Origin: a virus | Lineage: Duplodnaviria; Caudoviricetes | Virus record (IMG/VR): IMGVR_UViG_3300016744_000001 | Direction: 5' to 3' (one strand) | DNA length: 64,000 nucleotides | Shown here: positions 18,385-54,429 of the stretch, one piece after another | How the letters are laid out: each line of letters begins with the position of its first letter | Position numbering within the stretch: position 1 is the stretch's first letter | The notes under the pieces: model-generated | Told to the model about the DNA's origin: nothing | Seen by the model: only the letters and a program-made list of their open reading frames with translations | Database searches by the model: none | Position numbers and translations under genes: made by a program

Positions 18385-18395
18385 GGAGTTGACAC

Positions 18396-19268: not shown

Positions 19269-19472
19269 AAGTTCGGTGAGGAGATTGTGAAAACAGTTTC
19301 CTATGGTACTCAATAAGTGAAGTTGCCCCAAGTACTCCAGCAGGAATAGGCTTCTTGGAGATTACTGAACATACTTCTACCACACCCTGTTGAACGCCTG
19401 TTTGTTACCAAGGAAAGGGAGTGGCACATTGGGTGCCACTCCCGATTATTAATAAATTACCCGGAGTTTAAC

Positions 19473-19826
19473 GTGAAGCCTCTTTTCAGCAAAAACGGTA
19501 TCAACATTTTCTACAGTGATGAAACCACGGCCGGAAGTATGCCGGTTGAATACGTGGCTGGCAAGGCTGAACACAATTTTGATGACAACTCATTGGCAAT
19601 GATCAAATTCCAGACGACCGGCTTGTCTGCCGGTCGTGACGGCTTGACCAATGAAGATGTCGTCGAGATCCTGATTCACCGTCTCAGCTGCCTCCAGCAG
19701 GGCACGGCGAAGCATCTGGAAAACGATCTCGCTTTGAACCACCTGCGTCTGGCTCTTACCCACATGCAGATGCGTGAGCAGAAGTTGGCTGAGCGTCATG
19801 TCTGCAAATGCGCTGGCAAGAAATAA
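19473..19826 (+). CDS. Tad1-like anti-defence nucleotide sponge
   Basis: IKFQ...G...D++EI...RL..+Q.G....EN..AL.H+..AL..M..R.....ER.V pattern of Thoeris anti-defence 1. Confidence 0.7.
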   Translation: MKPLFSKNGINIFYSDETTAGSMPVEYVAGKAEHNFDDNSLAMIKFQTTGLSAGRDGLTNEDVVEILIHRLSCLQQGTAKHLENDLALNHLRLALTHMQMREQKLAERHVCKCAGKK

Positions 19827-19875
19827 TCATTGAGTCAGGGCTGGGATATCCCAGCCCTGACTGAGGAGAAAAGTT

Positions 19876-20508
19876 ATGGTGATTGAGAGAAGCGCTTATA
19901 TCTCAGTGGCTTCTACTTTGGATCTCACCTTAAATGCAAAGTACGAGTTACATCAGCGCGAGGTTATCCCAAAGGATAACCATCCCGTGTTGTATTTTGG
20001 CATCGGAATTGGTGGGCTGAACAATGTGTTTCATCCTTTCCAGCCAACTGGGCATGAATACGATCTGTACCACCCAATGCCAATTCGGTGCGTCCCGATT
20101 GATAATGACCTCCTACCGAACGAGATGTTGAAGTATCGAATTCGTGTAAAGCGAGAATTTGATGGGAAGGCATATTTGTGTTATTACCTGAAAGTTCTCG
20201 AGCGTTATCATGGGGGCAGTCGTGCGGTAATCACCTATGCTGAGCTCACAGAAGCAAAACAGCACAATGAGTTCATCTGCACGAATGTCAATGAGATTGG
20301 TTTGTACTCAGGAGAAGACAAACTCATTCTTGATGTAAGAAGTCATAAACGAAATGGGGCATTTCAACGGATGGAATCCTTTGGAACCCAGTTACGGTAT
20401 AAGTTTTGTAACACTGGGCTTGATATTACCGAGAATTACCCAACATACACGAGGGTATTCTTTACAGAAGACGTCAGTGAGCTGGATGACCAGCCCACTG
20501 GTTGCTAA
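19876..20508 (+). CDS. phiKZ-like virion structural protein homolog (short)
   Basis: YFGIGIGG, PIRCVPIDNDL..YRIR and DGKAY..YYLK motifs. Confidence 0.55.
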   Translation: MVIERSAYISVASTLDLTLNAKYELHQREVIPKDNHPVLYFGIGIGGLNNVFHPFQPTGHEYDLYHPMPIRCVPIDNDLLPNEMLKYRIRVKREFDGKAYLCYYLKVLERYHGGSRAVITYAELTEAKQHNEFICTNVNEIGLYSGEDKLILDVRSHKRNGAFQRMESFGTQLRYKFCNTGLDITENYPTYTRVFFTEDVSELDDQPTGC

Positions 20509-25324: not shown

Positions 25325-25461
25325 TCTAGTTAATTCATATCGGACAGACTAGCAGCCAGCCCAACTGGCTGCTAGTCTGCATGTAACAGTTTTACCCTCA
25401 TAGTGAGGAGTACTATCGAGTACGCTTTGTACTAATCTTTGGTGTTCATCGGAGTTTAATC

Positions 25462-33913: not shown

Positions 33914-34146
33914 AACTAGCAATTCTTAAAGGACTCCATCGAGGACTTCACACCAGAAGAGCCGAGACTCACAAAAATTGTGGTATTTTCCAGCAAAACA
34001 TACCGGGTTATCAAAAGCAAACAAAGCTGATGATACTACGTGCGTTTGCCAGGTCAAATCGAACTCAATCGGCGTTTGTCATCGCGCACAACAAAGAACT
34101 AAATTACTCAATGAAGGTGATGCATGGAGATACCAGAAATCAGTAA
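33910..34146 (+). CDS. small basic hypothetical protein
   Basis: ATGA coupling; GGAGG RBS. Confidence 0.5.
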   Translation: MKLAILKGLHRGLHTRRAETHKNCGIFQQNIPGYQKQTKLMILRAFARSNRTQSAFVIAHNKELNYSMKVMHGDTRNQ

Positions 34147-34504
34147 GATTGAGGATCTGGATATACAGATCAAGGCAATTATCACCAAGGCAATCCAAGA
34201 TCCAACCGTGATCCCCGCATACCTGCAGCTGCAGTTGGGAAAGCTGGCTAAGGCACAAGAAGGGTTGTCAGCGATGCTGCTGACTGTGGAAGATGGTTGT
34301 GAAGCGAATACCCGTAAACAGCTGGTGAACACCATGCGATCGGTGGTCCATCAAAACCGGATCATCCAGCATGTGATCAACGTGATCTTGGTCTATATTG
34401 CTAGCGGTGATTATGACAACGCCGCTCACGGTGCAGCACTGCGTGCTGGGGCTGATGCCAGAACAGTCCTGAAGGATGTTTGGAACAAGAAGTTCAAAGA
34501 GTAA
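34124..34504 (+). CDS. hypothetical helical protein
   Basis: 126 aa; AAGGTG RBS. Confidence 0.65.
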   Translation: MEIPEISKIEDLDIQIKAIITKAIQDPTVIPAYLQLQLGKLAKAQEGLSAMLLTVEDGCEANTRKQLVNTMRSVVHQNRIIQHVINVILVYIASGDYDNAAHGAALRAGADARTVLKDVWNKKFKE

Positions 34505-34714: not shown

Positions 34715-34966
34715 ATGAACCGCAGCGAGATCTTTGAACGTGTGAAGTTGTGTGTGTCGAAGCACACTGAGGTCGAAGCTGACCTGATCACTGAGCAGTC
34801 AATGTTGGCCGAGGAGTTGAACTTTGATTCGATTGCCTTGATTGAACTGGGCATGGAAATCGAAGAACAGTTTCAGGACATTAAAAAGCTGGATATTCCT
34901 GAAGGGGATATCATCGGCTGGTTTGATGTTGAAGAAATCGTGACTTATCTCGAGCAAGTCCTGTAA
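34715..34966 (+). CDS. acpP: acyl carrier protein
   Basis: 83-aa acidic protein with LAEELNFDSIALIELGMEIEEQF (phosphopantetheine Ser motif). Confidence 0.85.
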   Translation: MNRSEIFERVKLCVSKHTEVEADLITEQSMLAEELNFDSIALIELGMEIEEQFQDIKKLDIPEGDIIGWFDVEEIVTYLEQVL

Positions 34967-35055
34967 GCTACTCATCCCACACCAACTGGTGTGGGATGAG
35001 TATATTTTGTACAAAGTTTTTTCTTTGTATCTAATCAAGAATTTACGAGGTCATT

Positions 35056-36816
35056 ATGAAGTTATCTGTCAAGTTGACAGGCTTGTCAACAACACTGACT
35101 CTGTTTACAATTATCGTTGGGGTACTAGCGATACTTGGAATGTCAAACATTAACCGTGAAACACAAGACTTGGCGAAGAACTGGTTACCATCAGTCAAGT
35201 CAGTCAGTGAGCTGTCAGATGCGGTTAACGAGTTCAGACGAGATCAGTTGGCTAAGATCATTGTCAACATCAACAACAACAATGAGTTAGTTGTTGAGTA
35301 CAACCAGAAGACTGACAATGACTCAGCTCGTGTACAACGGCGAATGGATCGTTATGCGAAGTTGATCAGTGAACCTGAAGAACGAGTGGCGTTTGAGGAT
35401 TTCAAGATCGCTTGGCAAAAGTACATGGTTATCAATCAACGAATTGAAGTCCTGCTGTTACAAAACAAACCACAGGAAGCTGGCACACTGTTGTTTGGGG
35501 ATGCTCGGGTGATCTACAATACGGCACTATCAAATCTGCTTAAAGCGATCTCAATCAATGACCAAGGGTCAAGTCAATCAGCTGCTAAGGCGAGTGACGA
35601 GTACTCTCGTAGCCGATTGATCACATTGATCTTGACAGTAGTGTCCACGCTGATCGCGATCATGTTTTCAGTATTGTTGATCAGAGTAGTTCTCAAACAG
35701 TTGGGGGAAGACCCGGGGTATCTGTACGAAGTCTCCATGGAGATTGCGAATGGAAACCTTGATGTCAAGTTGAAGTCATTTGTGGGTGAGGGTGGTGTAT
35801 ACGGTGCACTCACGAAGATGGTCGCAACTTTGAAAGCTAAGATCAAAGAAGCTGAAGAGAAGTCAGCTCAGGCTGCACAAGAAGCGCAGTTTGCGAAAGA
35901 AGCCACTGCGGTTGCTGAAGAAGCAACTCAGAAAGCTCAACGTGCCAGAGCTGAAGGCATGATGCAAGCGGCAAAACAGCTGGAAGAAGTTGTGACTATT
36001 TTGACAACAGCGTCTGAAGAACTGTCAGCGCAAGTGGAACAATCTCGTCGAGGAGCAGATGATCAGTCTGGTCGGGTACGAGAAACAGCAACTGCAATGG
36101 AAGAGATGAACGCAACTATCTTGGAAGTAGCAGGGAATGCTCAACATGCAGCTGAAGCGTCCACACAGACCAGACAGCAGGCAATTGAGGGTACCACCAT
36201 TGTTGCTGATGTTGTCAAGAGCATTGAGTCCGTCAGAGTCCAGTCAGCTGGGATCAAGTCAGATATGGACATGCTTGGTAAACAAGCACTGGCAATTGGT
36301 CAGATTCTTAATGTGATTGCCGACATTGCCGACCAGACGAACCTGCTTGCTTTGAATGCCGCCATTGAAGCTGCCCGTGCAGGTGATGCTGGTAGAGGGT
36401 TTGCAGTGGTCGCTGATGAGGTTCGTAAACTTGCTGAAAAATCAATGACTGCTACTCAAGAAGTTGGGAAAGCAATCAATGACATTCAGGAAGGAACTAA
36501 AAAGAATATTGCTGGGGTTGAGAGCAACACTGTTGCAATTGAACAGGTAGCTTTGTTGTCAACTCAGTCTGGTGAAGCATTGACCAAAATCCTTGAGTTT
36601 GTTAACCATGTGAACGATCAAGTGCAATCAATTGCCACTGCTTCAGAAGAACAGTCAGCGGCAAGCGAAGAGATCAATCGTTCTGTGGAAGAAGTGGCAA
36701 CAATTTCCAACGAGACATCAGTTGCTATGGAACATGCCTCAGGTTCAGTTGCTAAACTGTTGCAACAAGTTCAAGTACTTCAGAAGCTCATCACTGAATT
36801 GAAATCAGCTAAATAA
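35056..36816 (+). CDS. methyl-accepting chemotaxis protein (four-helix-bundle sensor, Desulfovibrio-like)
   Basis: TM1, NWLPS-type 4HB sensor, TM2, HAMP-like segment, and [38 protein letters not shown]. Confidence 0.95.
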
Positions 36817-36875
36817 TTCATCAGTACTACACCCTGAAGAGGGTGTAGTACTGAGAATCGTAAAGATTTAAGGAA

Positions 36876-36943: not shown

Positions 36944-38974
36944 ATGGATTTCAAATTGATCAAGGATGCTGTTGCAGCGCAGTTTGCCAAGATGGTCAAG
37001 GAAGATGGCAACCTGTTTGTGGTCGACGTCGAACGTGACACCATCTGGGAAAGCTATCTTGGCAGTTTTCCTGAAGGGACCAACCCGATCTACCGCGTCC
37101 GCCGGGAGTACGATTGCTCCATCTGCCGTCAGTTCGTGCGCGTGCTCGGCGGGGTGGTTTCGATCAATCCCCAAACTTTGAAGGTTTCTTCCATTTGGGA
37201 CATCACCGTATCCGAACCGGCATTCCAGGCGGTGGCGGATGCCATGTCCAACCTGATCCACTCCAAGCCGATCGTTAATGCGTTCCGTCATTCGGAACAT
37301 CGCATTGGTGCCGACTTCACCATGGCCTTGTTTGAAGACAAAACCACCCCGGTCAAATTTGACCACTTCTTTGCAAACCTGCCAGGGTTTGCGTTTGTCC
37401 ATGACAAAGACTACGGAACGGTTCTGTCGCAGTACCGCTCCGGCTACGACGTGTTCAAACGCGGTTGTGTCGAACTGACGTCGGAAGCGTTCGACACGGT
37501 TCTTGAGCTGATCGCTCAGAACTCGCTCTATCGCGGTGAAGAATTCACCGGCGTAATCAACGCCTTCTACAACCTGAAGAAAAAACATGACGCGCTTCCG
37601 GAAGACCAGCGGGAAGCTTTCCTGTGGCTTTCAGCCGTCACCCAGCCGGCCAGTGTGCTGCGTTTCCGCAGCATGGCAATTGGCCAGCTCATCATCGACC
37701 TGTCGGACGATGTTGAACTCGAAGCTGCTGTCAGCTCTTACGAGCGCATCACCGCTCCCACCAACTATCGCCGCCCGACTTCTCTGGTCAGCAAAGCAAT
37801 GGTTGAACGGGCCAAACAGACCATTACTGAACTCGGTCTGGAATCTGCTCTTGCCCGCCGCTGTGCGACCATCGATGACATCCCTGTCGTCGATGCAATC
37901 TTTGTGGACCGTAACCAGGTCACCAAACTGGAAGACGATCCCTTTGACGTTCCAACCACGGGCAATAAGAAGCAGGACTTCAAACAGGTGCAGGAAATCA
38001 CCATCGACAAGTTCATTACCGAAGTGGTGCCCACCGCCACCAAGCTTGAAGTGCTTCTGGAAAACAAACTGACCAAGAATTTGGTCACGATGACCACTGC
38101 GGTTGACCCGACCGCACCCGGCATGTTCAAGTGGAACAATCCCCTTGCTTGGGCCTACGTTGGTGACGTCACCGACTCGATCAAAGAACGCGTGAAAAAC
38201 GCTGGTGGCAACATCACGGCGGATCTCTGCTGCCGCCTGTCCTGGGACAACACGGATGACCTTGATCTGCACATGATCGAACCTTCCGGGTTCGAAGTGT
38301 ATTTCCGTGAGAAGATGTCCCCCAGTGGCATGCAACTTGACGTTGACATGAACGCCGGCCACCAGCCGTTGAGCACTGAACCGGTGGAAAACATCTTCAT
38401 GCATTCTGAGCACGGTCTCAGCCAGAACGGTGTTTACCGCCTGTTTGTGCACAACTTCAACCGCCGTAACGGTGACTCCCGTGGTTTCACTGTGGAAATT
38501 GATTTCAAGGGCAGCGTCAAGACTTTCTGCTGCGACAAGGTGATTCCCACACATCACGCCGTCGAAGTGGCCAAGTTCAAGTACGTTCCCGGCGAAGGGA
38601 TCGTGATCATCGAATCTCTGCCTGAAAGCAATGCCAGCAAAGAAGTGTGGGGGCTGACCACGAACAACTTTGTTCCGGTGAAAGCCCTGGTCAAGTCTCC
38701 CAACCATTGGGGTGACAACAACATCGGCAACCAGCATTACTTCTTCATGCTGGATGATTGCATCAATCCCAACAGTGTTCGTGGTTTCTACAACGAATTC
38801 CTGCGGGAAGATCTCACTCAGCACCGCAAGGTGTTTGAACTGGTTGGCACCAAAGCTAAGGCCGAATCCACGCCCAACCAGCTGTCCGGTGTCGGTTTCT
38901 CGACCACACAGCCGGCACAGCTTCTTGTTCGGGTCACGGGTACCTTCACCCGTGTGCTTCGTGTAACCTTCTAA
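36944..38974 (+). CDS. large conserved phage protein with YfaP-like domain
   Basis: LSWDNTDDLDLH...LDVDMNAG...PVENI motif; N-terminal DCSICRQF. Confidence 0.75.
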   Translation: MDFKLIKDAVAAQFAKMVKEDGNLFVVDVERDTIWESYLGSFPEGTNPIYRVRREYDCSICRQFVRVLGGVVSINPQTLKVSSIWDITVSEPAFQAVADAMSNLIHSKPIVNAFRHSEHRIGADFTMALFEDKTTPVKFDHFFANLPGFAFVHDKDYGTVLSQYRSGYDVFKRGCVELTSEAFDTVLELIAQNSLYRGEEFTGVINAFYNLKKKHDALPEDQREAFLWLSAVTQPASVLRFRSMAIGQLIIDLSDDVELEAAVSSYERITAPTNYRRPTSLVSKAMVERAKQTITELGLESALARRCATIDDIPVVDAIFVDRNQVTKLEDDPFDVPTTGNKKQDFKQVQEITIDKFITEVVPTATKLEVLLENKLTKNLVTMTTAVDPTAPGMFKWNNPLAWAYVGDVTDSIKERVKNAGGNITADLCCRLSWDNTDDLDLHMIEPSGFEVYFREKMSPSGMQLDVDMNAGHQPLSTEPVENIFMHSEHGLSQNGVYRLFVHNFNRRNGDSRGFTVEIDFKGSVKTFCCDKVIPTHHAVEVAKFKYVPGEGIVIIESLPESNASKEVWGLTTNNFVPVKALVKSPNHWGDNNIGNQHYFFMLDDCINPNSVRGFYNEFLREDLTQHRKVFELVGTKAKAESTPNQLSGVGFSTTQPAQLLVRVTGTFTRVLRVTF

Positions 38975-38991
38975 TCAAAAGGACCATCACC

Positions 38992-39411
38992 ATGTCTGAC
39001 ATCTTTGAACGCGCTTCCCGTGAACGTCTCCGCATCGACACCCCTGCTGGTGCTCTTACCGTTGAAGACCTGTGGACTGTTCCCCTGCGCTCGCGCACTC
39101 CCAACAGCCTCAGCCTTGATCTCATTGCCAAGGACGTCTACACCGAGCTGAAGAAGCAGGAAGAGATCACCTCTTTTGTGGATGACGATGCGGCGCCGTC
39201 GAAGCAGAAGGCCACCCTTGAACTCGCCATGGACATCCTCAAGCACATCATCGCCTATCGCAAGGCTGAAAGTGCTCGCCAGGAAGACCTCCAGAAGAAG
39301 AAGGCTCTCCAGCAGAACCTCCTCCGCATCAAGGCCGACCGCCAGGCCGCGAACATGGAAAACCTCACCGACGAGGAACTGGACAAGATGATCGCCGACT
39401 GCAGCAACTAG
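38992..39411 (+). CDS. conserved phage coiled-coil protein, partner of the YfaP-like gene
   Basis: IFERASRERLR...GALTVEDLW..PL motif. Confidence 0.7.
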   Translation: MSDIFERASRERLRIDTPAGALTVEDLWTVPLRSRTPNSLSLDLIAKDVYTELKKQEEITSFVDDDAAPSKQKATLELAMDILKHIIAYRKAESARQEDLQKKKALQQNLLRIKADRQAANMENLTDEELDKMIADCSN

Positions 39412-39478
39412 CTGCATGGTTAACCGGGGCAGCAGCCATGCGGGTTGTTGCCCCTTTACAGTGAATGAGGAATAATCC

Positions 39479-39730
39479 ATGGTCATTGACGTTGTTTTGA
39501 CAGCGCTCATTTTCACTGTGATCATCATCATCTTGGCGAACACCATCATCCCTTGGATGTTTCCATCACTTTCGTATTGGTGGTTGTTCAAGAAAAGTAA
39601 GGTTGATGAAGCACATCGGAATAAATCCACAGTGGTTGAAGAAGTTGTTGCTAACGAAATTAACAAAGAAACCGGACGACTTGAAAAAGTACTTGTCAGG
39701 TCAACCGGAACCAATAAAGAAGGTCAGTAA
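39479..39730 (+). CDS. small single-TM protein
   Basis: Hydrophobic N-terminus; TAATG coupling to the SPFH gene. Confidence 0.7.
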   Translation: MVIDVVLTALIFTVIIIILANTIIPWMFPSLSYWWLFKKSKVDEAHRNKSTVVEEVVANEINKETGRLEKVLVRSTGTNKEGQ

Positions 39731-41073
39731 TGCAGCTCCCTGAAAATCTGATTACCAAGTATGGCCGGAAGGTCATCGGCAGTGTTGTTATTGTCGTGTC
39801 GTTGGTCCTTGGTTGGATAATGGCATCCAATTTGTGGGAAAACATTCCCGCTGGCTACATTGCTGTTATCCAGTCGCCGGTTACTGGTGAACTCACCGTG
39901 CATACTGAACCGGGCATGAAGTGGCAGGGTTTCGGCAGTGTTACCTTGTACCCTCGCACTGGTCTGTTTGAATTTACCCAGCCGGTCAATCCTTACTCGG
40001 AAAACAAAGCTGAAGCTGCCAGGTACGACAAGGCCAACGACAACTCGCACAAGATCACCTTCAATGACGGCGGCGAAGCCTACATCTCTGGCTCCATCAG
40101 GTACGATTACCCCATGGACAAAGAGAAGATCGAGCTGCTGCACCGCATGTTCTACGGGCACGATGCGGTTATCAAAGGCTTGGTTGCGAAGACTATGGAA
40201 CGTGCGGTGTACATGAGCGGCCCGCTTATGACATCGATCGATTCTTTCATGTCACGTCGTTCCGACCTGCCCATTCTTATTGAAGACCAAGCCCGAAACG
40301 GTCTGTACCGCGTGATCACCAAGGATGTCATCTTGGTGGATGAATTCACCAAAGAACGCAAGCAGATCAAACAGGCTGAGCCGGTAAAAGATGCTGATTC
40401 CCCGAACGGGTTCCTCCGCCAGGATGAATCGATTATGACCAAGTATGGTCTTTCGCTGGCCAACCTCAGCATCACCGTTAACTATGACCCCAAAGTACAG
40501 GGTCGTGTGAACGCTCTGTTTGCTGCTGCCTCGGACATTCAGATCGCAACAATGAACGCCAAGAAAGCAGAACAGGATCGTAAGACGGCGGCCGAACAAG
40601 GCCAAGCCACTGCCACCACTGCTGAATGGCGCGCCAAAGCGATTGCTGCTGAAGAAATCGCTCGTGCTGAAAAAGAGAAGAGTGTGAAGATCCTTGAAGC
40701 CGAAAAGGATCGTGCCTCTGCCGTTATTGCTGCTGAGAAAGAACTGCAGGTTGCTGATCTTGATCGCAAAACGGCCATCGCTTATAAGGACTCACAGCTG
40801 CAGCGCGCTGAAGGTGACGCCACATATAAGCGCAAGGTCATGGAAGCTGACGGTGCACTCACTCCCAAGTTGGATGCGTACATTGAAGTGAACAAGATCT
40901 GGGCTGAGGCCTTTGCGGCTTACAAAGGTAACTTTGTTCCGCAGTTCGTGATGGGCAGCGGCGGCCAAAATGGGCAGTCGAATACCGCCCAGGACTTCAT
41001 GAACATGATGATGATGAAAACCAGCAAGGACCTTTTGGGTGATGCTGGTGGCATGGCCGTTCGCCAGAAGTAA
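39730..41073 (+). CDS. SPFH/Band-7 (flotillin-like) membrane protein
   Basis: N-terminal TM, IPAGYIAVIQ, and AEA-rich coiled coil. Confidence 0.75.
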   Translation: MQLPENLITKYGRKVIGSVVIVVSLVLGWIMASNLWENIPAGYIAVIQSPVTGELTVHTEPGMKWQGFGSVTLYPRTGLFEFTQPVNPYSENKAEAARYDKANDNSHKITFNDGGEAYISGSIRYDYPMDKEKIELLHRMFYGHDAVIKGLVAKTMERAVYMSGPLMTSIDSFMSRRSDLPILIEDQARNGLYRVITKDVILVDEFTKERKQIKQAEPVKDADSPNGFLRQDESIMTKYGLSLANLSITVNYDPKVQGRVNALFAAASDIQIATMNAKKAEQDRKTAAEQGQATATTAEWRAKAIAAEEIARAEKEKSVKILEAEKDRASAVIAAEKELQVADLDRKTAIAYKDSQLQRAEGDATYKRKVMEADGALTPKLDAYIEVNKIWAEAFAAYKGNFVPQFVMGSGGQNGQSNTAQDFMNMMMMKTSKDLLGDAGGMAVRQK

Positions 41074-41127
41074 ACAATAACTCCACTGACCGGCAGGATT
41101 CCTGCCGGTCAGTGATAAGGAAGTGTC

Positions 41128-42991: not shown

Positions 42992-44662
42992 ATGGATCGT
43001 CAACAATTGTTGGCTCAGCTTAATGAACTGAAGTCAACCGAGCGCAAGAGCAAAGTTGAACGGTATGATCCTGATGGCAACTTTATCGGTGAACAGGATA
43101 TCACCGCACAACAGTACGAGGAAACTCGTTATGTTCCACCGGACCCGTACGACTTTGAGTTCGACACGTCGGAAGTCGATGCCCAAAAGCAGAAGTACGA
43201 AGAAGCAAAGGCAAAGAAAGCCGCTACAAAACCTGACTCTCAGCCAGACGACACCGAGACTACCGGTGATGGTAATGGCGCTGAATCACAACCGCAAGAA
43301 AGCCAGAGTGGTCAGGGTGGTCAATCTGGACAGTCCCAGAATGGTAATGGTGAAGAGCAGTCACCAATGACCAAGCAGACTTTGGAAGAACTCCAGAAGC
43401 AGCTGGATGAAGCCAAAGTTGAATGTGAAGAAGGTCTTGCCGAAGATCCGGATAGTAAAGAACTGCAGGAATCCAAACAACAGCTGGACAAACTGCAGGA
43501 AAAGCTGGACGCACACAAGCAGGCTTTGGCCGAGCAGCAAGGACAGAATGGTGATCCCAATCAGGAACAGCAGTCGGGGCAGCAGCCTAACGAATCTGGT
43601 TCTGAACAATCGGATCAGCAGAATGGTCAGTCTGAAGAAAAGAACGACCAGTCTGGGGATGCTGAATCCGAAGACAAACAGGACAAGCCTGATCAGCAAG
43701 ACGGTCAGCAGGATGACAAGTCTGAGGAAGCGTCTGACAAAGAAGACGAATCCAAGAAAGAAGCTGAAGAGCAAAAAGAAGATCAGCAGCAGACTCCTCA
43801 ACCTGAACCTGAAAAGCCGGAACCTGAACAAAAGAAAGAGGAACAGAAAGAAGAAGAACTTGTTCCTCCAGATCAGGCTTACTACAAACCGTCTTGGTAC
43901 CAGGACATGAAGAACCTGGTGATGATGGGATTTGATGTTCTCGTGTGTGGCCCGGCCGGTTGCGGTAAGTCTCGTGCTGGTCGTGAGATTGGTCGGGAAT
44001 TGAAGAAGCCTGGCAACACTCACGCGTTTCGTGCGGGGATGCGCAAGTCTGAACTGCTGTACTCCAAGGAACTCCGTGGTGGCGACAGCGTGATCGAACT
44101 GTCCCCTCTGCTGCGTGAAGTTCAGAAACCTCTCATCACAGTGATCGACGAAGCCTTGTCAGTTGACCCGGAAGTGTTGATCTGCTTCAACGGCCTGCTG
44201 GAATCTTCTCAGCGCAGTGTTGACACTCCGATTGGTGAAGTGGTGCGGGATAAAGAACATCGGTTCATCCTGACCAGCAACACTGACGGCCGTAGTGAAT
44301 CACGCATCTATCGTGCTCCTCAGATGCAGGATGCTTCCATCCTGTCTCGTGTCATGGTCATGAATGTTGACTATGATGAAAAGGTGGAATGCAACATCGC
44401 TTGTTCTTCCGGCGCCCCCGCTTGGAAGTACATTGTTCACAACACGCATGCTCTGCGAAAGGCAGTGCGCAAAGCTGACATGGTGATGGACATCTCCACT
44501 CGTTGGATTGTTCAGGCATGCAAGCTTAACAAAGCTGGGGTCGCTCGTGAAAAGGCGTTTGCTATGGCGATGCTTGACCGCTTCAACGAGAACGAGCTGA
44601 AGAAGCTGCAGGGCATGGGGACAACCATTGACTTCAGTGGTGCATCGAAGCTGCAAAAGTAG
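42992..44662 (+). CDS. MoxR/CobS-like AAA+ ATPase with long Q/E/D-rich N-terminus
   Basis: GPAGCGKS Walker A, VIDE Walker B, TSNT sensor. Confidence 0.85.
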   Translation: MDRQQLLAQLNELKSTERKSKVERYDPDGNFIGEQDITAQQYEETRYVPPDPYDFEFDTSEVDAQKQKYEEAKAKKAATKPDSQPDDTETTGDGNGAESQPQESQSGQGGQSGQSQNGNGEEQSPMTKQTLEELQKQLDEAKVECEEGLAEDPDSKELQESKQQLDKLQEKLDAHKQALAEQQGQNGDPNQEQQSGQQPNESGSEQSDQQNGQSEEKNDQSGDAESEDKQDKPDQQDGQQDDKSEEASDKEDESKKEAEEQKEDQQQTPQPEPEKPEPEQKKEEQKEEELVPPDQAYYKPSWYQDMKNLVMMGFDVLVCGPAGCGKSRAGREIGRELKKPGNTHAFRAGMRKSELLYSKELRGGDSVIELSPLLREVQKPLITVIDEALSVDPEVLICFNGLLESSQRSVDTPIGEVVRDKEHRFILTSNTDGRSESRIYRAPQMQDASILSRVMVMNVDYDEKVECNIACSSGAPAWKYIVHNTHALRKAVRKADMVMDISTRWIVQACKLNKAGVAREKAFAMAMLDRFNENELKKLQGMGTTIDFSGASKLQK

Positions 44663-44673
44663 TGAGGTGATGC

Positions 44674-45456
44674 ATGGAAACCGTACAGGAGTGGATTGAC
44701 AACCCACATGGTGGAGTTGTCTGGTTTCACGGGATGGACTTCTTGCAATACGTCATGAAGAATGAACCGAGGCAATCAGCCTTCCAGAATTCTTCATTGG
44801 GGCATTACAGGACCAATTACGACAATTTTGTCAGTAAGGTTAAAGAATACCGATTTGATCGGGAACGACTGAGCATCACCATGGAACAGGTGTTGTCTCG
44901 TCCACGAAAGCGGAACAAGTACCGGACATCTGTGGATGGTGATGACTTGGATGTTGATTCGTACATTGAAACGTTTGGTGAAACCAGTCCAAAGATCTGG
45001 GATGAACCTTACAAGATCGTGTGCGAACGCCGCCAGGCCGTCAATGTCTATTTTGAATGTTCAGTTCCGTGGGTATCCCGTAAACAAACATACATCGCTA
45101 ACCGGCAACATCTTGCTTACAATATCGCATTGAACTGTGAGCAGGATGGTGTACCTTGTCGAATCGTGACGTGTTACGGTGTGCGAGTCAGCGAGGTCAA
45201 GCAAGCAATCGTGTTCCACATTGTCATAAAAGACTTTGACGAACCGATCTACCCACCACTGTGGGGGGTGTTTCTGAACAATGAAACAACGAACACAGCG
45301 GTCAACTTGTTGTCTGAAATGGTCATTGGGACTGGACAGGATGGAAACGGCTTAGTTGTACCATTCGTCATCCAGCCCACTGAGAATGAAGAGTTCCAAG
45401 TGCTTGACCTTAAAAGCTGTGAATACATGCAGATCAAAAAGAAAGGCAGGGATTAA
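44674..45456 (+). CDS. putative vWA-like partner of the AAA+ ATPase
   Basis: Position after the ATPase; G.DLDVD.Y and a degenerate MIDAS-like strand. Confidence 0.5.
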   Translation: METVQEWIDNPHGGVVWFHGMDFLQYVMKNEPRQSAFQNSSLGHYRTNYDNFVSKVKEYRFDRERLSITMEQVLSRPRKRNKYRTSVDGDDLDVDSYIETFGETSPKIWDEPYKIVCERRQAVNVYFECSVPWVSRKQTYIANRQHLAYNIALNCEQDGVPCRIVTCYGVRVSEVKQAIVFHIVIKDFDEPIYPPLWGVFLNNETTNTAVNLLSEMVIGTGQDGNGLVVPFVIQPTENEEFQVLDLKSCEYMQIKKKGRD

Positions 45457-45514
45457 TGGCTAGAGGGAGTGTTTTCCCACTCCCTCTAGCCTATAGTAAA
45501 ATAATGGAGGACTA

Positions 45515-46582
45515 ATGATTTTTCCTAAAAAGATGGATCATGTGGTCATCGTCTATCATCGGATCGATATGGACGGTGTTTGCTCGGGTACGATTGCTTC
45601 CATGGCGGCACATGTTCACAATAATAAGGCAATCGTGTCTACAGTTGGGTATGATCATGTTGACCCGCTTGAAAAGCTGGAGTCGAAGATCAATGCCTGT
45701 GGCGAGTTTGATCTGATGATTGTTGTCGACTGCACTCTGCCGGATGTTTTGCTCGATCGGTATGCAGAGAAGATGATCATTATTGATCATCATGACTCAG
45801 GTATCGAACGAGCCGCTCTCTATGCAGATCGCTTCTATGGCCACTGTTTGCGTCTGAACGACGCCAGTGTTCTGGATTGGGCTGGCAACATGGCGAAGAA
45901 AGCCGCTGCCTGCGAACTCGCATGGAACTACTTCTTCCGCAATGAACGGATGCCGTACATTGTGCGTTTGTGCGGTCGGTACGATGTGTACAATCACAAC
46001 GACGACACGCTGGCGTTCAATGAGCGTTGTCGAGACATCAACATCCAGCACCAGAACTTCACTTACATGGGCGGCGATCTGCTCCATCGTGAAGATGCCC
46101 CGGATATTTGGTTTCCGAAGTTGTTCTTGGATGAACTCACATTCCAGTCAGGACGACTCACTCAAGAACTCTGCGATGGTCAGTTGACTTTGCACTATGC
46201 CAAAAAGTTCAATGCTCGTGATTGTCAGGATGGTGCAAAGGAATTCACGATTCGTGGAACTGATTTGGTCGCCTTGGTGGCAAATCAGGCTGGCCGCAAT
46301 TCCAAGTTCTTTCAGTCCAAATGGGACCCCACCAAACATGACCTGATGATCTTCTTTTCCTACAACCTGAGTAATCAGGTGTGGAAGGTTGGGTTGTTCA
46401 CAGACGATAAGGAAGTGGACATGTCCAAGGTCTTTGCGATTGTTCTCAACAATCCGAAGAATAAAGTCAATGGTCGGTACGGTGGTCACATGCGAACTGC
46501 CTGTGGATATGTCACTGATGACATACAGGAAGATCTCCTGCAGTATCTCATCAAAAACACGCCTGAGTACGTGAAGGATTAG
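45515..46582 (+). CDS. DHH-family phosphoesterase
   Basis: YHRIDMDG, VVD, IIDHH and GGH motifs. Confidence 0.85.
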   Translation: MIFPKKMDHVVIVYHRIDMDGVCSGTIASMAAHVHNNKAIVSTVGYDHVDPLEKLESKINACGEFDLMIVVDCTLPDVLLDRYAEKMIIIDHHDSGIERAALYADRFYGHCLRLNDASVLDWAGNMAKKAAACELAWNYFFRNERMPYIVRLCGRYDVYNHNDDTLAFNERCRDINIQHQNFTYMGGDLLHREDAPDIWFPKLFLDELTFQSGRLTQELCDGQLTLHYAKKFNARDCQDGAKEFTIRGTDLVALVANQAGRNSKFFQSKWDPTKHDLMIFFSYNLSNQVWKVGLFTDDKEVDMSKVFAIVLNNPKNKVNGRYGGHMRTACGYVTDDIQEDLLQYLIKNTPEYVKD

Positions 46583-46584
46583 TC

Positions 46585-47052
46585 ATGGAACGGTCAAGTT
46601 GGGATTCCTACTTCATGCGGATTGTGCAGCAGGTTGCCACACGGTCGACTTGCTCTCGTCGACAGGTTGGTGCCGTTGCGGTGCGCAACCATCGCATCCT
46701 TGCCACGGGTTACAATGGTGCTCCTGGTGGACTGAAGCATTGTGCTGAAACTGGTTGTCTGCGCCAGAAGATGAACATTCCTTCTGGTGAACGGCATGAG
46801 ATCTGTCGAGCTTTGCATTCTGAGCAGAACCTGATTTTGCAGGCAGCTACCGGTGGTTTGGACATCACTGGTGCTGACATCTATTGTACCACGCATCCGT
46901 GTGTGATCTGTGCAAAGCTTTTGATCGGGTGCAAAGTCAACAAGATCTACTATCTTGACGAATACTGCGACCCGTTGGCAAAGGAAATGTTGCAGGAAGC
47001 TGGAATCGAAACCCAGCGCTTGCAGGAAGTTCATCCCGGAGAATTTTGGTAA
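46585..47052 (+). CDS. dCMP deaminase
   Basis: RSTC.RRQVGA, TGYNG, HSEQN and PCVIC motifs. Confidence 0.95.
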   Translation: MERSSWDSYFMRIVQQVATRSTCSRRQVGAVAVRNHRILATGYNGAPGGLKHCAETGCLRQKMNIPSGERHEICRALHSEQNLILQAATGGLDITGADIYCTTHPCVICAKLLIGCKVNKIYYLDEYCDPLAKEMLQEAGIETQRLQEVHPGEFW

Positions 47053-47098
47053 CCGCAGAAGGGGCAAGATTGCCCCTTCTGCATTTATCGAGGGCAAT

Positions 47099-47689
47099 AT
47101 GGAAAATTCAACATCAAAATCATCGAACTGGTATTATCCCTTGACCGCACAGCTCTTAGAGCTGATTGTAAGTGTGCTACTTTATCCGAATGATTACGCT
47201 AAATTGAAGTACGAGATTGAAACTTTTGCACTGGGTTGTGAGCAGGTTAACCACAATAAAAATGATGCCTTACAGTACTTTACCATGATTGCTGACCAGT
47301 TTGACCGAGTTGTGACCGATTTCATGGTTAACTCAGAAATGCAAAAGCTGAACAAGTTTGGAACAGCAGATTACGATCGTGGTCTTGTGCAGAAGGTATT
47401 CAATTTGTTGGTACGACTTTCACAATACCCGGTTGAAATAGCCTTTATTGAGGAACGGCCGCAAAGTGATCAGATTGATGTTGTCTTTAAACTTAGTCAG
47501 CTTGAGTTTATCACGATTGTTGCATCAAGATCCAGAACTGGTGATGTGACGATGCATCATCTCACTGAAAGTCTGTCAAGTGAAGCTAAGCTGAAACGTG
47601 GTTCAACACTAGGTATGGAAATTTGTGCAGCGATGTTTCAGGTCTTAGCTGAACTCGCAATACATTGGAGGGGATATGAACGTCGTTGA
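47099..47689 (+). CDS. hypothetical protein (tandem paralog 1)
   Basis: PL..QLL..I...EIETFALGCEQ. Confidence 0.75.
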   Translation: MENSTSKSSNWYYPLTAQLLELIVSVLLYPNDYAKLKYEIETFALGCEQVNHNKNDALQYFTMIADQFDRVVTDFMVNSEMQKLNKFGTADYDRGLVQKVFNLLVRLSQYPVEIAFIEERPQSDQIDVVFKLSQLEFITIVASRSRTGDVTMHHLTESLSSEAKLKRGSTLGMEICAAMFQVLAELAIHWRGYERR

Positions 47690-48275
47690 GCTGGGGTTGG
47701 GAACGAATGAACGGTTGTACCTACCGTTGGTCCAACATTTGTTTGACTTGATTATTCTGATTCTGACGAGTCCGCATGATAAGAGATCGATTGAAACCGA
47801 TCTTGAGACGTTCATGTTGGGATGCAATCAGGTTGGACACAGCAGAAATGAAGTGATCCAATATTTTTCAAATATCACTGGTAACTCTGATCGGGTGGTG
47901 AAATCTCTGATGGAAATCCAATCAGATATTTTTGAGGAACCAGGAAGGTGGAGTCCAGTGGACTCCACCCGACATCAATTTTTACATCATCAGCTTGGAC
48001 GGCTTCAGCATTTTCCAGTGAGTGTTCCGATGTTTAAAAGATCAAACCGCGGCCAGAAAGTAATTTTCGAGCCTGAAGGTTTCAGGAATTTGGTAATTCG
48101 AACCCAGAACAATTGGACATCGTACATTGTTGTTACGGACATTCATGAGGCCACAGTCAAAGGAGAAGTGACAATCATGCGAGACGAGACCGTCTTACAG
48201 AGTCTTTTGGCGGCAGTAATCCAGCTCTTGCTAAGGATAAGTGAGAACTGGGCAGAAGAGAAAATCAAGGGATAA
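47676..48275 (+). CDS. hypothetical protein (tandem paralog 2)
   Basis: PLVQHLF...DLETFMLGCNQ. Confidence 0.75.
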   Translation: MNVVELGLGTNERLYLPLVQHLFDLIILILTSPHDKRSIETDLETFMLGCNQVGHSRNEVIQYFSNITGNSDRVVKSLMEIQSDIFEEPGRWSPVDSTRHQFLHHQLGRLQHFPVSVPMFKRSNRGQKVIFEPEGFRNLVIRTQNNWTSYIVVTDIHEATVKGEVTIMRDETVLQSLLAAVIQLLLRISENWAEEKIKG

Positions 48276-48287
48276 CGGGAAAAGAAC

Positions 48288-48869
48288 ATGCTTGTACACA
48301 ACTTCCCACCCCATCCAAACTTGCACGAACCTTTGGTGCGGCAACTGTTGGATACTATTGTGGCTGGTATGACGGGCAAAAATGTTCGTCACGAGATTGT
48401 GACCTTTGCTCTGGGCTGTGCTCAAATTAATTTGAGCACAGCCCAGATCATTCCGTATTTCCTGTATTTTCTGTTCTATCAGGATCAGATCATGGGTCAG
48501 TGGAACAACACTCAGGCAGATTTTTTAACTGCACCACAAAAACATCATGAGTCGGATGATGTGGTTAGAAGTCAGTTGATTCGGCAGTTTACAAGGTTGC
48601 CGTATCAGCCACTCAATTATCAGTATCCCGATAATCAGCGGCATTCATTTTGGATTATTGTCACAGGTTTCACTGGTATTCAGGTACACATCACGGCGGC
48701 TAGAAACGTCGAAGATTTTGTTATTGTGGAGGATTATCAGAATGACAAGATCGTCTACAAAAACTTGATTTGTAAAATTCGGTCACTGAAACAATTGTTT
48801 CTTGGGACACTGGTGGAGGTCTTTGCCTATGTCCTAAAACTGATGGATCGCCCAGAAGAGGAGGAGTAG
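48288..48869 (+). CDS. hypothetical protein (tandem paralog 3)
   Basis: PLVRQLL...EIVTFALGCAQ. Confidence 0.75.
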   Translation: MLVHNFPPHPNLHEPLVRQLLDTIVAGMTGKNVRHEIVTFALGCAQINLSTAQIIPYFLYFLFYQDQIMGQWNNTQADFLTAPQKHHESDDVVRSQLIRQFTRLPYQPLNYQYPDNQRHSFWIIVTGFTGIQVHITAARNVEDFVIVEDYQNDKIVYKNLICKIRSLKQLFLGTLVEVFAYVLKLMDRPEEEE

Positions 48870-48873
48870 TAGA

Positions 48874-49473
48874 ATGCCACATTCTGGAGATAGTGGAGCA
48901 AGCACAAAAACTCTTTGTTTGTCGGTCTTGCAGTTCACAAATGAACTTTGGACGATGTCAGCTGACTGGTTGTGGATGCATCTTGATCAGTTGGTTGATG
49001 CTGAAATCAAGAAAGTTTTTGGTGTGCAATCAACCAATGCGATCAATACCACCGCGGAACAAGCATTGCTATTCGCTTGGAACAAACAGGTGGAAATGGT
49101 TGCTGCTGGGTATGACATAACTGGATCAATTTTGAATCAGTTAGATGAGTTCATTGGACCTGATGTGCTGGCAACCACGGTATCAGAAAGTTATTTAAAC
49201 CAAGAAAGTCAAATTCCAGTGGTCTTGGTTTATCGTGATGCGATCCTTCGTTGGTGGATAACTATATTTGAAGAAAAGGTGGTTACCCACACTCAAACCT
49301 GCAACATACTCGCGAAATTGATCACCCGAATATCAGTTCTTCATGAGTACCGACATTGCTGTCAGGCTAAACGGCTGTTCAAATTTTCAAAATCGAATTT
49401 GGCAGAGAGTGATGCTGATGAGTATGCTCGGCAAGTAATTCTCTCTCAGCTCTTTTTGGAGAAGGACTGGTGA
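48874..49473 (+). CDS. putative HExxH metallopeptidase
   Basis: VLHEYRHCCQ...ESDADEYA. Confidence 0.6.
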   Translation: MPHSGDSGASTKTLCLSVLQFTNELWTMSADWLWMHLDQLVDAEIKKVFGVQSTNAINTTAEQALLFAWNKQVEMVAAGYDITGSILNQLDEFIGPDVLATTVSESYLNQESQIPVVLVYRDAILRWWITIFEEKVVTHTQTCNILAKLITRISVLHEYRHCCQAKRLFKFSKSNLAESDADEYARQVILSQLFLEKDW

Positions 49474-49474
49474 C

Positions 49475-50086
49475 ATGGATGATCTAACCAAAATTGACCG
49501 GCTTACCATGGTTGTTTATCCTCAGTTGTCGTCAAGGTTATCCGAAGTGTGGAATCATTCCAATACCACGCTGGTGAAAAGAGAAGTATCTCGGGTATTT
49601 GGTGATAACGACAAAATAAAAGTCATGAGTGATCGCAAGTTTATCAAGTTCGCTGAGAACTACTTGGACGACTTGGGTGATCGGAATGATCAGTCAGAGA
49701 TCACTTCTGTTGTTTTGTCAATCTTACTTGAGGTTAAAGAAGACAACGGTTACTTTGCTCAAACGTTCATTGATGACATCGACGAGACGATGTACTCTGA
49801 GCGCTGGGTGGTCTTCTTTACGAATACGTTCTCACGGTGGTTTCATCGTAATAACTGTGCTGGATTATTCGGAATCCATACGGACCGAGAACATTTCCAA
49901 CAGTGGCTTGTTACACGATTTGTGGTGTACCACGAGTACTTTCATTATTGTGAATCAAACCGAATGTTAGCCACCCAAAGTGACACAGTTATCCAGTATT
50001 CTGAAAACAGTGCAAACAGCTATGCCTGGAACCGATTGATTGAAGACGTTCTGGGCATGGCAAACCAAGGAGAGACCAATGGTTGA
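49475..50086 (+). CDS. putative HExxH metallopeptidase
   Basis: VYHEYFHY...ENSANSYA. Confidence 0.55.
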   Translation: MDDLTKIDRLTMVVYPQLSSRLSEVWNHSNTTLVKREVSRVFGDNDKIKVMSDRKFIKFAENYLDDLGDRNDQSEITSVVLSILLEVKEDNGYFAQTFIDDIDETMYSERWVVFFTNTFSRWFHRNNCAGLFGIHTDREHFQQWLVTRFVVYHEYFHYCESNRMLATQSDTVIQYSENSANSYAWNRLIEDVLGMANQGETNG

Positions 50087-50477
50087 TATCGTGTTTTACC
50101 AGCTGATTTACCGGTGTGCACTTTGCGGTGAACGTATTGTGTTGCCTGACCTTATTGCGGTTACCAGTATTTCAGTTGACAGCTTGATTGCTGCCATTAC
50201 CAGAGGCGGGGTCATCCGCATCCCCGAGTTTGTTGGTGAAGTTGTGCATCTTGACCGCACGCCAGTCTGCTTGTTGAACGCGTATCTGAATGCGCATAAT
50301 GAGCGACTGGAATTCTGGAAGGAGATGCCCCACTTGCATGCTGAAGGGACACCACACGAAATGAACACACACATGACCTTCTTGGGTTTCCGTGAAATCC
50401 CCAGCCATAATCCACCAGAAGAGCTTAAGTCGCAAATTGATGCCGTTCTTCTGGTTCACAAGAACAACCAAAGGTAA
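50079..50477 (+). CDS. hypothetical metal-binding protein
   Basis: YRCALCGE plus His-rich C-terminus; AAGGAG RBS. Confidence 0.6.
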   Translation: MVDIVFYQLIYRCALCGERIVLPDLIAVTSISVDSLIAAITRGGVIRIPEFVGEVVHLDRTPVCLLNAYLNAHNERLEFWKEMPHLHAEGTPHEMNTHMTFLGFREIPSHNPPEELKSQIDAVLLVHKNNQR

Positions 50478-50482
50478 CAACT

Positions 50483-50695
50483 ATGTGGTCACTCATCGTC
50501 TGTGTCATGGTTGGTGCAAACTGCATCATTGAGCCTGGTTTGTCACACCAGTGGCTTGGCAGCACGTTGTACAAAACTGAAAAGGAGTGCACCGAAGCCA
50601 GGAGCAATCCTGTGATTCTGGCAGAGCTTCAGCATCTTACCCGGAATGCTTCTGGGGAGTTTGCACTGATGTGCACAAAGCCTACAGCGAAGTAG
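50483..50695 (+). CDS. small Cys-containing, possibly secreted protein
   Basis: Hydrophobic N-terminus; 4 Cys. Confidence 0.6.
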   Translation: MWSLIVCVMVGANCIIEPGLSHQWLGSTLYKTEKECTEARSNPVILAELQHLTRNASGEFALMCTKPTAK

Positions 50696-50746
50696 ACTCA
50701 CTAGTGGGGCAGCATGTGCTGCCCCACTAGGATTTAAGCCAAGGTA

Positions 50747-52099
50747 TTACTTTTTGATCTGACCAGGCTGGTTCAAACCGGTGGTGTTGATGACCTGTTC
50801 GACAAAGTCATCCCACAGCTTGTTGCTGTTGTAGGTGACTGACTTTGCGATGGCCGACATGGCACCAGGCTTCGACGGAGCGAAGTTGATTTCCTTCAGA
50901 CGGTACGCATTCGTTTGGTCCAGACACTTCAACTGGAACAAGAACTGCTGCAAGCCGATGGCGTTGATCTGGTTGGGCACAGAACCAGCGTAGTCAGTCC
51001 CAAGATCAAAACCAACCTGCAAGGTGATATCGGTAATCTCAGCCTGACCAATGCTGTTGGAGAAGTTGAGAATAACCTTGGTATTGTCCGTGATGAATGA
51101 CGCACCCATCAAGTGTTTGTAGACACGCGCAAGACCGGTGAGGTCTGTGATACCACCAGTGGAGAAATCCATGGTGTACACGTCAGTCGCCGGATCGTAC
51201 CAAGTGATCAGTTTTTCTGCGACCACTTCAAGGATGTCGGGTGACAACTTGGTCAGAGGGACTGGAGTGTCAGGAGCGACAATGTCACCACCATTGAAGG
51301 TCACGATGCGCAGATCAGCAAAGCTGGTATCCGCAGACGCGAATTTCTGGAAGGTGAACACCAGTTTGATAGCTGATACTAGTACGTCAATCTTGTACAC
51401 CCCAGTCTTTACCTGATTTTCAGTCACGGTGGATACACGAGTGACGACATCAGCACCATCAACAGCGTCAACGGTCCAAGCGACCGGGGCATTGTAAACA
51501 TTACTGTTCATGCCAATCGAGTAAGCTGTTGCTTTGGCCGCAGCAGCGTAGTTGACTGTGACCTGAGCACCGATCATCGAAGAACCAACCGCGTTCTGGT
51601 CGGCAGCTGAGGCGATCACTGCACCATTTTCAATGCGAGCCGAGAACAAAGCGTTTGTAGCAACTGAAGAGACTGCCAGCGTTTCGTATGGCGACAGTGA
51701 TGGCACCATGTTGTTGGTGTACAGTTCTGGGAAGTTGTGGTTCACGAACTTCAGGAAGAAGCTTTTCACAGTTTCTTCATTCAAGGGGTTGAAGATGTAA
51801 TCGACTTCCCCGTTGTAGTAGCGTTCGATGAACGTAGCATTGTCCACGATCTCGTAACGACCAGTCGGCTGTTGAACCAGCCAATCGGTGTTCTTGAGCG
51901 TGACTGTAGCTGAGGTGTCACGATACCGGAATGAATACTCCATGCAGTTGGTTTCCGCAGAACGAGTGGCGGTCAACGAAGCCAGACCACCCATGGTTGA
52001 TGCCATTGACAGAGCATCAGCGATGTCTTGTTCTGTGTCAACTGTCAGTTGGCAAGCTTTGACTTTACCGTCAGTGCGAAGGTATTGAGAAAATGGCAT
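50747..52099 (-). CDS. putative virion protein
   Basis: Minus-strand late-type operon; AAGGAG RBS before MPFSQ. Confidence 0.55.
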   Translation of the reverse strand: MPFSQYLRTDGKVKACQLTVDTEQDIADALSMASTMGGLASLTATRSAETNCMEYSFRYRDTSATVTLKNTDWLVQQPTGRYEIVDNATFIERYYNGEVDYIFNPLNEETVKSFFLKFVNHNFPELYTNNMVPSLSPYETLAVSSVATNALFSARIENGAVIASAADQNAVGSSMIGAQVTVNYAAAAKATAYSIGMNSNVYNAPVAWTVDAVDGADVVTRVSTVTENQVKTGVYKIDVLVSAIKLVFTFQKFASADTSFADLRIVTFNGGDIVAPDTPVPLTKLSPDILEVVAEKLITWYDPATDVYTMDFSTGGITDLTGLARVYKHLMGASFITDNTKVILNFSNSIGQAEITDITLQVGFDLGTDYAGSVPNQINAIGLQQFLFQLKCLDQTNAYRLKEINFAPSKPGAMSAIAKSVTYNSNKLWDDFVEQVINTTGLNQPGQIKK

Positions 52100-52128
52100 T
52101 GGGGAATGCTCCTTGTCCAAAGTTAAGG

Positions 52129-54059: not shown

Positions 54060-54069
54060 GGAGATAACA

Positions 54070-54404: not shown

Positions 54405-54429
54405 CTATTATTTTTTTATTGGAGGGATC

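Follow-up and report, generated by a model that had tools for sequence, protein, structure and literature searches.

The virus record IMGVR_UViG_3300016744_000001 (Duplodnaviria; Caudoviricetes) carries a gene for a methyl-accepting chemotaxis protein (MCP) within the 64-kb stretch of DNA analyzed here. This stretch, referred to as the window, is part of a phage genome of ~273 kb (273,336 bp) and defines the scope of the results throughout. The available evidence suggests that the gene encodes an intact, phage-resident chemoreceptor of the Desulfovibrio family, an accessory gene kept by selection whose product probably joins the receptor arrays of the host to bias swimming. As the gene is complete and conserved without partner genes, the receptor probably plugs into the chemotaxis machinery of the host cell. 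The protein is an ordinary member of its receptor family, and what is new is the evidence for selection, a bounded time of acquisition, the Desulfovibrio origin, and a possible clade of receptors shared across phages.

Architecture of the receptor protein

The receptor is encoded by an uninterrupted open reading frame (ORF) with an ATG start codon, and the sequence GAGG is located five bases upstream of this ATG. The gene and the predicted parts of its product are as follows.

35056..36816, + strand: MCP coding sequence, 586 amino acids (aa), stop codon included in the coordinates
35143..35613, + strand: periplasmic four-helix-bundle sensor, residues 30–186, predicted from Pfam, hydropathy, AlphaFold2, and Foldseek
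35689..35841, + strand: HAMP-like linker, residues 212–262, with the QLGEDPGYL block typical of Desulfovibrionaceae receptors
36088..36117, + strand: methylation-consensus site 1, residues 345–354, first methylation helix, strict regular-expression match
36313..36441, + strand: signalling hairpin tip, residues 420–462 (43 residues), invariant across the phage and Desulfovibrio orthologues
36634..36663, + strand: methylation-consensus site 2, residues 527–536, second methylation helix, strict match (start 527–528)

A first-pass annotation, made from the DNA letters, described a full-length MCP with a four-helix periplasmic sensor, two transmembrane segments, and an intact signalling hairpin, and this description is borne out by Pfam, hydropathy, AlphaFold2, and sequence alignments. 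Pfam assigns residues 1–183 to 4HB_MCP_1 (E 8.8e-21), with a weaker match to TarH, and residues 367–550 to MCPsignal (PF00015; E 1.9e-47, 161.7 bits versus a gathering cut-off of 34.6), and the hydropathy profile places two membrane segments at approximately residues 7–29 and 187–211. The AlphaFold2 model of residues 1–215, built with 30 homologues, is a four-helix bundle with a mean pLDDT of 91.2. A Foldseek search with the sensor model returned the ligand-binding domain of VC1313 as the top match, followed by MCP2201, Tsr, and Tar, all of which are chemoreceptor ligand-binding domains. The Vibrio cholerae VC1313 domain, which binds D-arginine and D-lysine (8BSA, 8BSB), superimposes on the model with a TM-score of 0.90 by target and a root-mean-square deviation of 1.5 Å over 158 columns; the sequence identity between the two sensors is 16%, and consequently no ligand can be assigned to the phage protein. 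The sensor retains all 22 of the invariant or near-invariant residues in the alignment of residues 1–215, including W43, L44, P45, R61, R62, Y100, E109, Y123, N168, and G171.

Following the second membrane segment, residues 212–262 form a conserved segment of ~50 residues that has the right length and position for a HAMP domain. Within this linker, Q215–L223 is invariant in the receptor alignment, and the orthologue P0037 is named "HAMP domain-containing" in UniRef. The EE/EQ methylation-type sites reported previously were recovered with a strict consensus ([ASTG][ASTG]xx[EQ][EQ]xx[ASTG][ASTG]), which is matched at residues 345 and 527. The side chains E349 and E350 of the first site are each conserved in 118 of 119 homologues, and looser EE sites are found at ~318 and 535. 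In receptors that have been studied, the hairpin tip is the region that contacts CheA and CheW, and the tip region of the phage protein aligns to PDB chains of Tsr, TM1143, and PcaY. Judged from these features, the gene is whole and appears to have all the sequence features expected of a functional transmembrane receptor.

The signalling domain resembles those of well-studied receptors, aligning to Escherichia coli Tsr and Tar, Thermotoga maritima TM1143, and Pseudomonas putida PcaY (1QU7, 3ZX6, 2CH7, 6S18) with E values of 1e-21 to 1e-33; the alignment to PcaY is ungapped over 258 residues (E 3.5e-33). While Tar, Tsr, and PcaY belong to the same four-helix sensor class as the phage receptor, the identity across the sensor is just 7–16%. 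In contrast to what is seen in the solved receptors compared, the phage protein has no C-terminal NWETF-type pentapeptide and instead ends in ELKSAK.

Residence in the phage and purifying selection

The junctions of the receptor gene with its surroundings are the same in three assemblies (the window and the contigs L002 and L001), which argues for a gene that is resident in the phage rather than a host contaminant, as the first-pass annotation had proposed. The JGI contig L002 shares 99.96% DNA identity with the window over 20.5 kb, spans both junctions, and has its genes in the order of the window, and the shorter receptor gene called on this contig reflects only a different choice of start codon. 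The Logan contig L001, which comes from another sample, shares 79% DNA identity and keeps the gene order acyl carrier protein (ACP), receptor, DUF8224, and a 139-aa gene. The four genes compare between the window and L001 as follows.

Receptor: protein identity 88.7%, dN/dS 0.039 (approximate, with dS near saturation at pS 0.69, and to be read as <0.1)
ACP: protein identity 86%
DUF8224: protein identity 79.7%, dN/dS 0.116
139-aa gene: protein identity 68.3%, dN/dS 0.337

Among the four L001 genes, the receptor has the best conserved protein product, and its dN/dS is similar for residues 1–190, which contain the sensor (0.042), and for the signalling domain (0.038). Third codon positions of the two receptor genes are 52% identical. 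Strong purifying selection thus acts on the receptor throughout, from the sensor to the signalling domain. Relaxed selection, which the first-pass annotation had raised as a possible objection to its own proposal, is not what the comparison with a related phage reveals.

The borders of the receptor unit are also conserved between the window and L001.

34969..35002, + strand: left hairpin, perfect 15-bp stem and 4-nt loop followed by TATTTTG, a terminator-like end of the ACP gene
35003..35055, + strand: upstream region with a probable promoter or regulatory role; GAGG at 35047–35050 is the ribosome-binding site, and TATATTAC, seen ahead of several other genes, is absent
36821..36854, + strand: right hairpin, perfect 15-bp stem and 4-nt loop, five bases 3' of the stop codon

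Both hairpins are present as first reported. The left hairpin has a counterpart in L001 at 397–428, and a compensatory T:A to C:G substitution keeps the right hairpin intact there. Of the 53 bases that separate the left hairpin from the start codon, 48 are identical to L001, as counted by eye in the printed alignment.

A more distant relative of the window phage provides a bound on the time of acquisition. Contig L121, which has the same gene order and a ligase that is 48% identical, contains a DUF1281_C gene in the receptor slot, bracketed by homologues of the window gene at 34124–34504 and of DUF8224, and no receptor was found in its 21-kb locus. Because L121 has a different gene at this position, the receptor is an accessory gene in a variable slot, which is located beside tRNA genes. 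The gain of the receptor appears to postdate the divergence from L121 and to predate that of the window phage from L001. The ACP gene occupies the variable slot together with the receptor, with no ACP homologue found in L121. The match of L121 to DUF8224 covers only the first 148 residues of that protein and falls within a 190-aa gene.

Codon composition offers a further view of how long the gene has been in the phage. The G+C content at third codon positions (GC3) of the receptor is 0.43 (0.34 in L001), the second lowest of the 20 window genes measured (range 0.42–0.67). The GC3 of cellular orthologues ranges from 0.40 to 0.93, where the value of 0.40 comes from one orthologue on a contig of 42% G+C and the rest fall between 0.50 and 0.93. 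The earlier statement that the wobble positions are A/T-rich like those of phage genes consequently holds in part: the receptor lies below most cellular orthologues, but it is AT-richer than the typical gene of the window. These values suggest that the receptor has resided in the phage for a long time; its AT content is, if anything, above that of the phage.

The findings above make it highly improbable that the gene is a passenger, whether picked up neutrally and recently from a host, introduced by host contamination, or created as an assembly chimera. Receptors are abundant in Desulfovibrio genomes, so that chance capture is possible, and the slot is variable. However, beyond the shared junctions, the closest cellular protein is just 61% identical, and the GC3 of 0.43 contrasts with cellular values that are at least 0.50 in all but one case. 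A dN/dS of ~0.04, the rank of the receptor among the four L001 genes, and the conservation of the upstream region and both hairpins, one of them through a compensatory change, are similarly at odds with a passenger. Finally, the 79% DNA identity excludes the possibility that L001 and the window are error-bearing assemblies of one population.

Origin of the receptor gene

The resemblance to Desulfovibrio MCPs noted in the first-pass annotation is confirmed by sequence comparison and phylogeny. The nearest cellular proteins are 58–61% identical over the full length, and those with names belong to Desulfovibrio desulfuricans, Desulfovibrio sp. QI0442, and UIB00. In a search of 185,579 species, each represented by one genome, nearly all of the best 80 loci are from Desulfovibrionaceae or Desulfovibrionales, with a few metagenome-assembled genomes labelled otherwise. 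One close Desulfovibrio orthologue sits among flagellar genes on a chromosome fragment of 58% G+C. Another of the closest relatives, a cellular-looking receptor (P0007, 61% identical), is found on a 6.2-kb contig (L004, ENA ERZ25038502) where it adjoins an ABC ATPase; the 42% G+C of this contig is far under that of typical Desulfovibrio and near that of the phage itself.

The phylogeny places the phage protein inside a 22-row Desulfovibrio clade (support 100/100), at an unresolved three-way basal fork. Two residues bear on this position. Residue 532 is Glu in the phage receptor and in outgroup orthologues and Gln in 56 of 56 of the closest cellular orthologues, and residue 224 is Tyr in the phage receptor and outgroup orthologues and His in 53 of the 56 close cellular orthologues. 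E532 and Y224 fit a branching point close to the base of the Desulfovibrio receptors sampled.

The Desulfovibrio chromosomal four-helix-bundle receptors (583–586 aa; D. desulfuricans SFAD67, QI0442, UIB00) share the architecture, the length, and the QLGEDPGYL linker of the phage copy, and there are no gaps between the phage protein and these orthologues across residues 212–586, giving cytoplasmic domains of the same length. The phage copy differs from these receptors by a 3-residue insertion near residue 71, by E532 in place of Gln, and by a sensor that is only 39–41% identical; a known ligand was found for none of these cellular orthologues. The identity to the Desulfovibrio orthologues rises to 84–88% in the tip region and is complete for residues 420–462. 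This domain-wise divergence appears to be at the level seen between genera of the family. Taken together, a Desulfovibrio-type origin of the phage receptor is well supported by these sequence comparisons. Its capture from this receptor family would have been direct or would have passed through another phage, with the direction of transfer inferred from the wide cellular distribution of the family.

Proposed function in the infected cell

Chemoreceptors that belong to the same length class assemble together with CheA and CheW via their tips. The phage receptor could consequently function as part of the chemotaxis system of the infected cell. First, the receptor would enter the inner membrane during infection and join the polar receptor array of the host. 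This step is proposed because the tip is identical to that of the host-type orthologues and the cytoplasmic domain has the same length. Next, the receptor would signal via the CheA and CheW of the host, while the CheR and CheB of the host would adapt the receptor through methylation and demethylation. Finally, a ligand bound at the four-helix sensor would bias how the infected cell swims. What the phage gains from this is a matter of conjecture; one navigation input may be kept or re-weighted while the phage seizes host gene expression, such that the infected cell is held where phage yield or the next encounter with a host is favoured. The logic would be comparable to that of psbA in cyanophages.

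The absence of other che genes from the window, reported in the first-pass annotation, was confirmed by tblastn with D. desulfuricans CheA, CheW, CheY, CheR, and CheB, which identified no homologue of these five proteins in the window (best E 1.6). The lack of adaptation enzymes encoded nearby would also suit a receptor that acts as a jammer, whose sole role within host arrays would be to lock CheA in the on or the off state and thereby to stop or fix flagellar rotation, with ligand sensing irrelevant. Such a protein might serve to save energy, to block superinfection by flagellum-dependent phages, or to make cells settle. The identity of the tip to that of the host makes incorporation into arrays plausible for a jammer as well, and E532, present in four virus-context copies versus Gln in the 56 closest cellular orthologues, could shift the activity of a newly made receptor. 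However, E532 is also found in the outgroup orthologues and need not be a viral adaptation. Furthermore, a pure jammer would have no need of a sensor constrained like the signalling domain (dN/dS 0.042 versus 0.038), nor of the full set of family-conserved sensor residues and both strict methylation motifs. The level of constraint, which is alike in the sensor and the signalling domain, and the retention of the family residues and methylation sites favour ligand-dependent signalling over simple jamming, and jamming as the sole function is considered unlikely.

The output could also be something other than swimming. The receptor might feed a Che-like pathway of Desulfovibrio that controls biofilm formation, pili, or development, or might be a membrane or periplasmic part with some other use for the phage. 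In D. desulfuricans SFAD67, seven CheW-domain genes are distributed over separate loci and there are dozens of receptor paralogues, so that several pathways exist. In contrast, the closest cellular orthologue examined adjoins flagellar genes, the phage protein is organized like a classical transmembrane taxis receptor, and there is no sequence hint of a new output. An output other than swimming accordingly appears quite improbable.

Several points weigh against a host-directed receptor of Desulfovibrio type that is kept by selection. The Pfam HAMP model finds nothing at residues 212–262, even at E 10, and the dN/dS values are approximate for the reason given above. The che partners may lie in the ~273-kb genome beyond the window. 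The assignment of the host rests almost wholly on the receptor gene, and no CRISPR-spacer-like match was detected in 40 kb of the window (301 Desulfovibrionaceae genomes searched with positions 1–20000 and 111 Desulfovibrio genomes with positions 44001–64000). The G+C content of the phage is 46.5%, versus ~57% in 6 kb of flanking sequence at the D. desulfuricans gene. A resident chemoreceptor that biases the swimming of infected cells nevertheless remains the preferred explanation of the gene.

Host of the phage

The receptor must fit the CheA and CheW of the host, and therefore a Desulfovibrio-type host is plausible; a host within the Desulfovibrionaceae is considered likely from the sequence of the receptor. 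The earlier proposal that the host is a sulfate reducer stands to the extent that the receptor is of Desulfovibrio type, but it draws no support from the spacer search, the DNA ligase, or the dCMP deaminase. The spacer-style search gave two weak matches of 31–38 nt, neither of which lies in a repeat array. Two window genes were examined as host clues and rejected. The dCMP deaminase (46585–47052, + strand) was considered as a host-derived marker as it has a DNA match in 34 of 111 Desulfovibrio genomes at 65–70% identity; protein matches of 60–65% extend across several phyla, including Betaproteobacteria and Dethiobacteria, and consequently point to no taxon. The cellular matches of the DNA ligase are ~30% identical and taxonomically scattered. 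The similarities of the tRNAs are not host-specific. No jumbo phage was found in the literature for the sulfate-reducer host group.

Receptors in other viral contigs

Phage-borne receptors have been annotated previously. The family phrog_8572 is matched by the window protein at E 1e-72, an Acinetobacter phage record contains a "tap" gene, and a chemoreceptor is listed in passing among the genes of Nitrosospira phage genomes (bioRxiv 10.64898/2026.05.02.722434). A literature search found no functional study of any phage-borne chemoreceptor. Searches for further examples differed in their yield. An IMG/VR search with the single protein gave no relatives, while an alignment-based scan of IMG/VR identified 11 viral loci with receptors. 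A tblastn search of 50,697 GenBank phage records returned only Acinetobacter phage MD-2021a, in a search that was insensitive, probably due to low-complexity masking, and is no measure of rarity; a query with the tip alone found nothing in the GenBank phage records.

Among the viral loci, IMGVR_UViG_3300016725_000002 (L101) is a 161.7-kb record with 32% G+C, an estimated completeness of 59%, and a tail sheath gene nearby. Its receptor, P0072 (L101:10001–11746), is a 581-aa protein of the same architecture that is 53% identical to the window receptor. A related receptor, P0080, is found at 2226–3974 of the Logan contig L112, a 7.5-kb sequence with 29% G+C and phage-like small ORFs. P0072 and P0080 are solitary receptors that share the 4HB-plus-MCPsignal organization with the window receptor at 51–53% identity, but the surrounding genes are unrelated and the G+C content is much lower. 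The low G+C of L101 and L112 is hard to reconcile with known Desulfovibrionaceae hosts. A receptor with a different sensor is found in IMGVR_UViG_3300039008_000120 (L108), a complete T4-like genome of 232,818 bp with terminal repeats, a Gp23 capsid, and 27% G+C, which contains a solitary dCache_1-HAMP-MCPsignal receptor at L108:8858–10816. No CheW was found in the IMG/VR receptor-bearing records searched, including L108, and a search of the IMG/VR records for a phiKZ-type polymerase was likewise negative. The other receptor contigs have no further gene in common with the window or with one another in the loci compared.

In the tree, the four virus-context 4HB receptors (window, L001, P0072, P0080) form a clade inside the Desulfovibrio clade with 99/96 support, or 93 without P0080, where long branches and one row of aberrant composition make long-branch or compositional attraction possible. 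The odds that this viral clade is real appear roughly even. A broader proposal is that unrelated jumbo phages (the window phage with its relative L001, the 161.7-kb phage, and L112) exchange a chemoreceptor lineage that arose by a single capture from a Desulfovibrio-like ancestor, spread by transfer between phages, and serves as a dedicated navigation module that steers infected cells via host CheA and CheW. This proposal is tentative and, at present, rather doubtful.

Gene setting and other features of the window

The window phage is an uncultured jumbo phage distantly related to phiKZ. The window encodes several split beta-type subunits of RNA polymerase (phrog_3295, phrog_3015, and phrog_2986) together with a helicase and an NAD-dependent ligase, a set of genes characteristic of phiKZ-like phages. 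The top identity in a tblastn comparison to known phiKZ-like phages is 28%, and the tRNAs gave the sole matches to the window in a nucleotide search of GenBank phages. The window contains five tRNA genes, of which tRNA-Thr and tRNA-Gln lie directly upstream of the receptor, before the ACP gene. The immediate neighbours of the receptor unit are as follows.

34715–34966, + strand: ACP, 83 aa (Pfam PP-binding, E 1e-4), start 17 bases 3' of tRNA-Gln
Start at 36944, + strand: DUF8224 (phrog_1735), a conserved phage protein of 676 aa

DUF8224 and a 447-aa phrog_11908 protein, which together cover 36944–41073 on the + strand, have 52–54% G+C and a GC3 of 0.61–0.67, and the window average is 46.5% G+C.

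Hairpins like those at the borders of the receptor unit are a general feature of the window. There are 29 perfect hairpins with a stem of at least 11 bp, versus 0 in each of 20 shuffles, and most are located just 3' of genes.

3292–3326, 25345–25379, 41084–41114, and 48410–48447: examples of the window-wide set, which has 11–17-bp stems and 3–7-nt loops

Most of the hairpins have no T-run and are consequently not classical intrinsic terminators. Because such hairpins occur across the whole window, the pair that brackets the receptor means only that the receptor forms its own unit, like many genes of this phage.

The motif TATATTAC, which corresponds to the early-promoter consensus of phiKZ, occurs on the + strand of the window at 8080, 10015, 24216, 36876, and 54043. 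These five sites compare to 0.43 expected and a maximum of 2 in 100 shuffles. Most of them lie 50–70 bases upstream of gene starts, including those of a polymerase subunit at 10079 and of DUF8224 at 36944. No TATATTAC is found ahead of the start of the receptor gene. Two further candidates for promoter motifs upstream of the receptor, TATATTTTGTAC and TTTGTATCTWAT, show no enrichment across the window and were rejected.

Implications

The receptor is so far the sole clue to the host of this 273-kb phage and, if the clue is true, the window would belong to a phiKZ-like phage that infects an anaerobic sulfate reducer. The steering of infected-cell behaviour by viruses is largely unexplored for bacteria. 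A solitary receptor that is kept by selection and has a tip matching that of the host would offer a concrete handle on the navigation of infected cells and on its target. Furthermore, the recurrence of receptors in several unrelated giant phages suggests that carrying a chemoreceptor may be a phage strategy rather than a curiosity.

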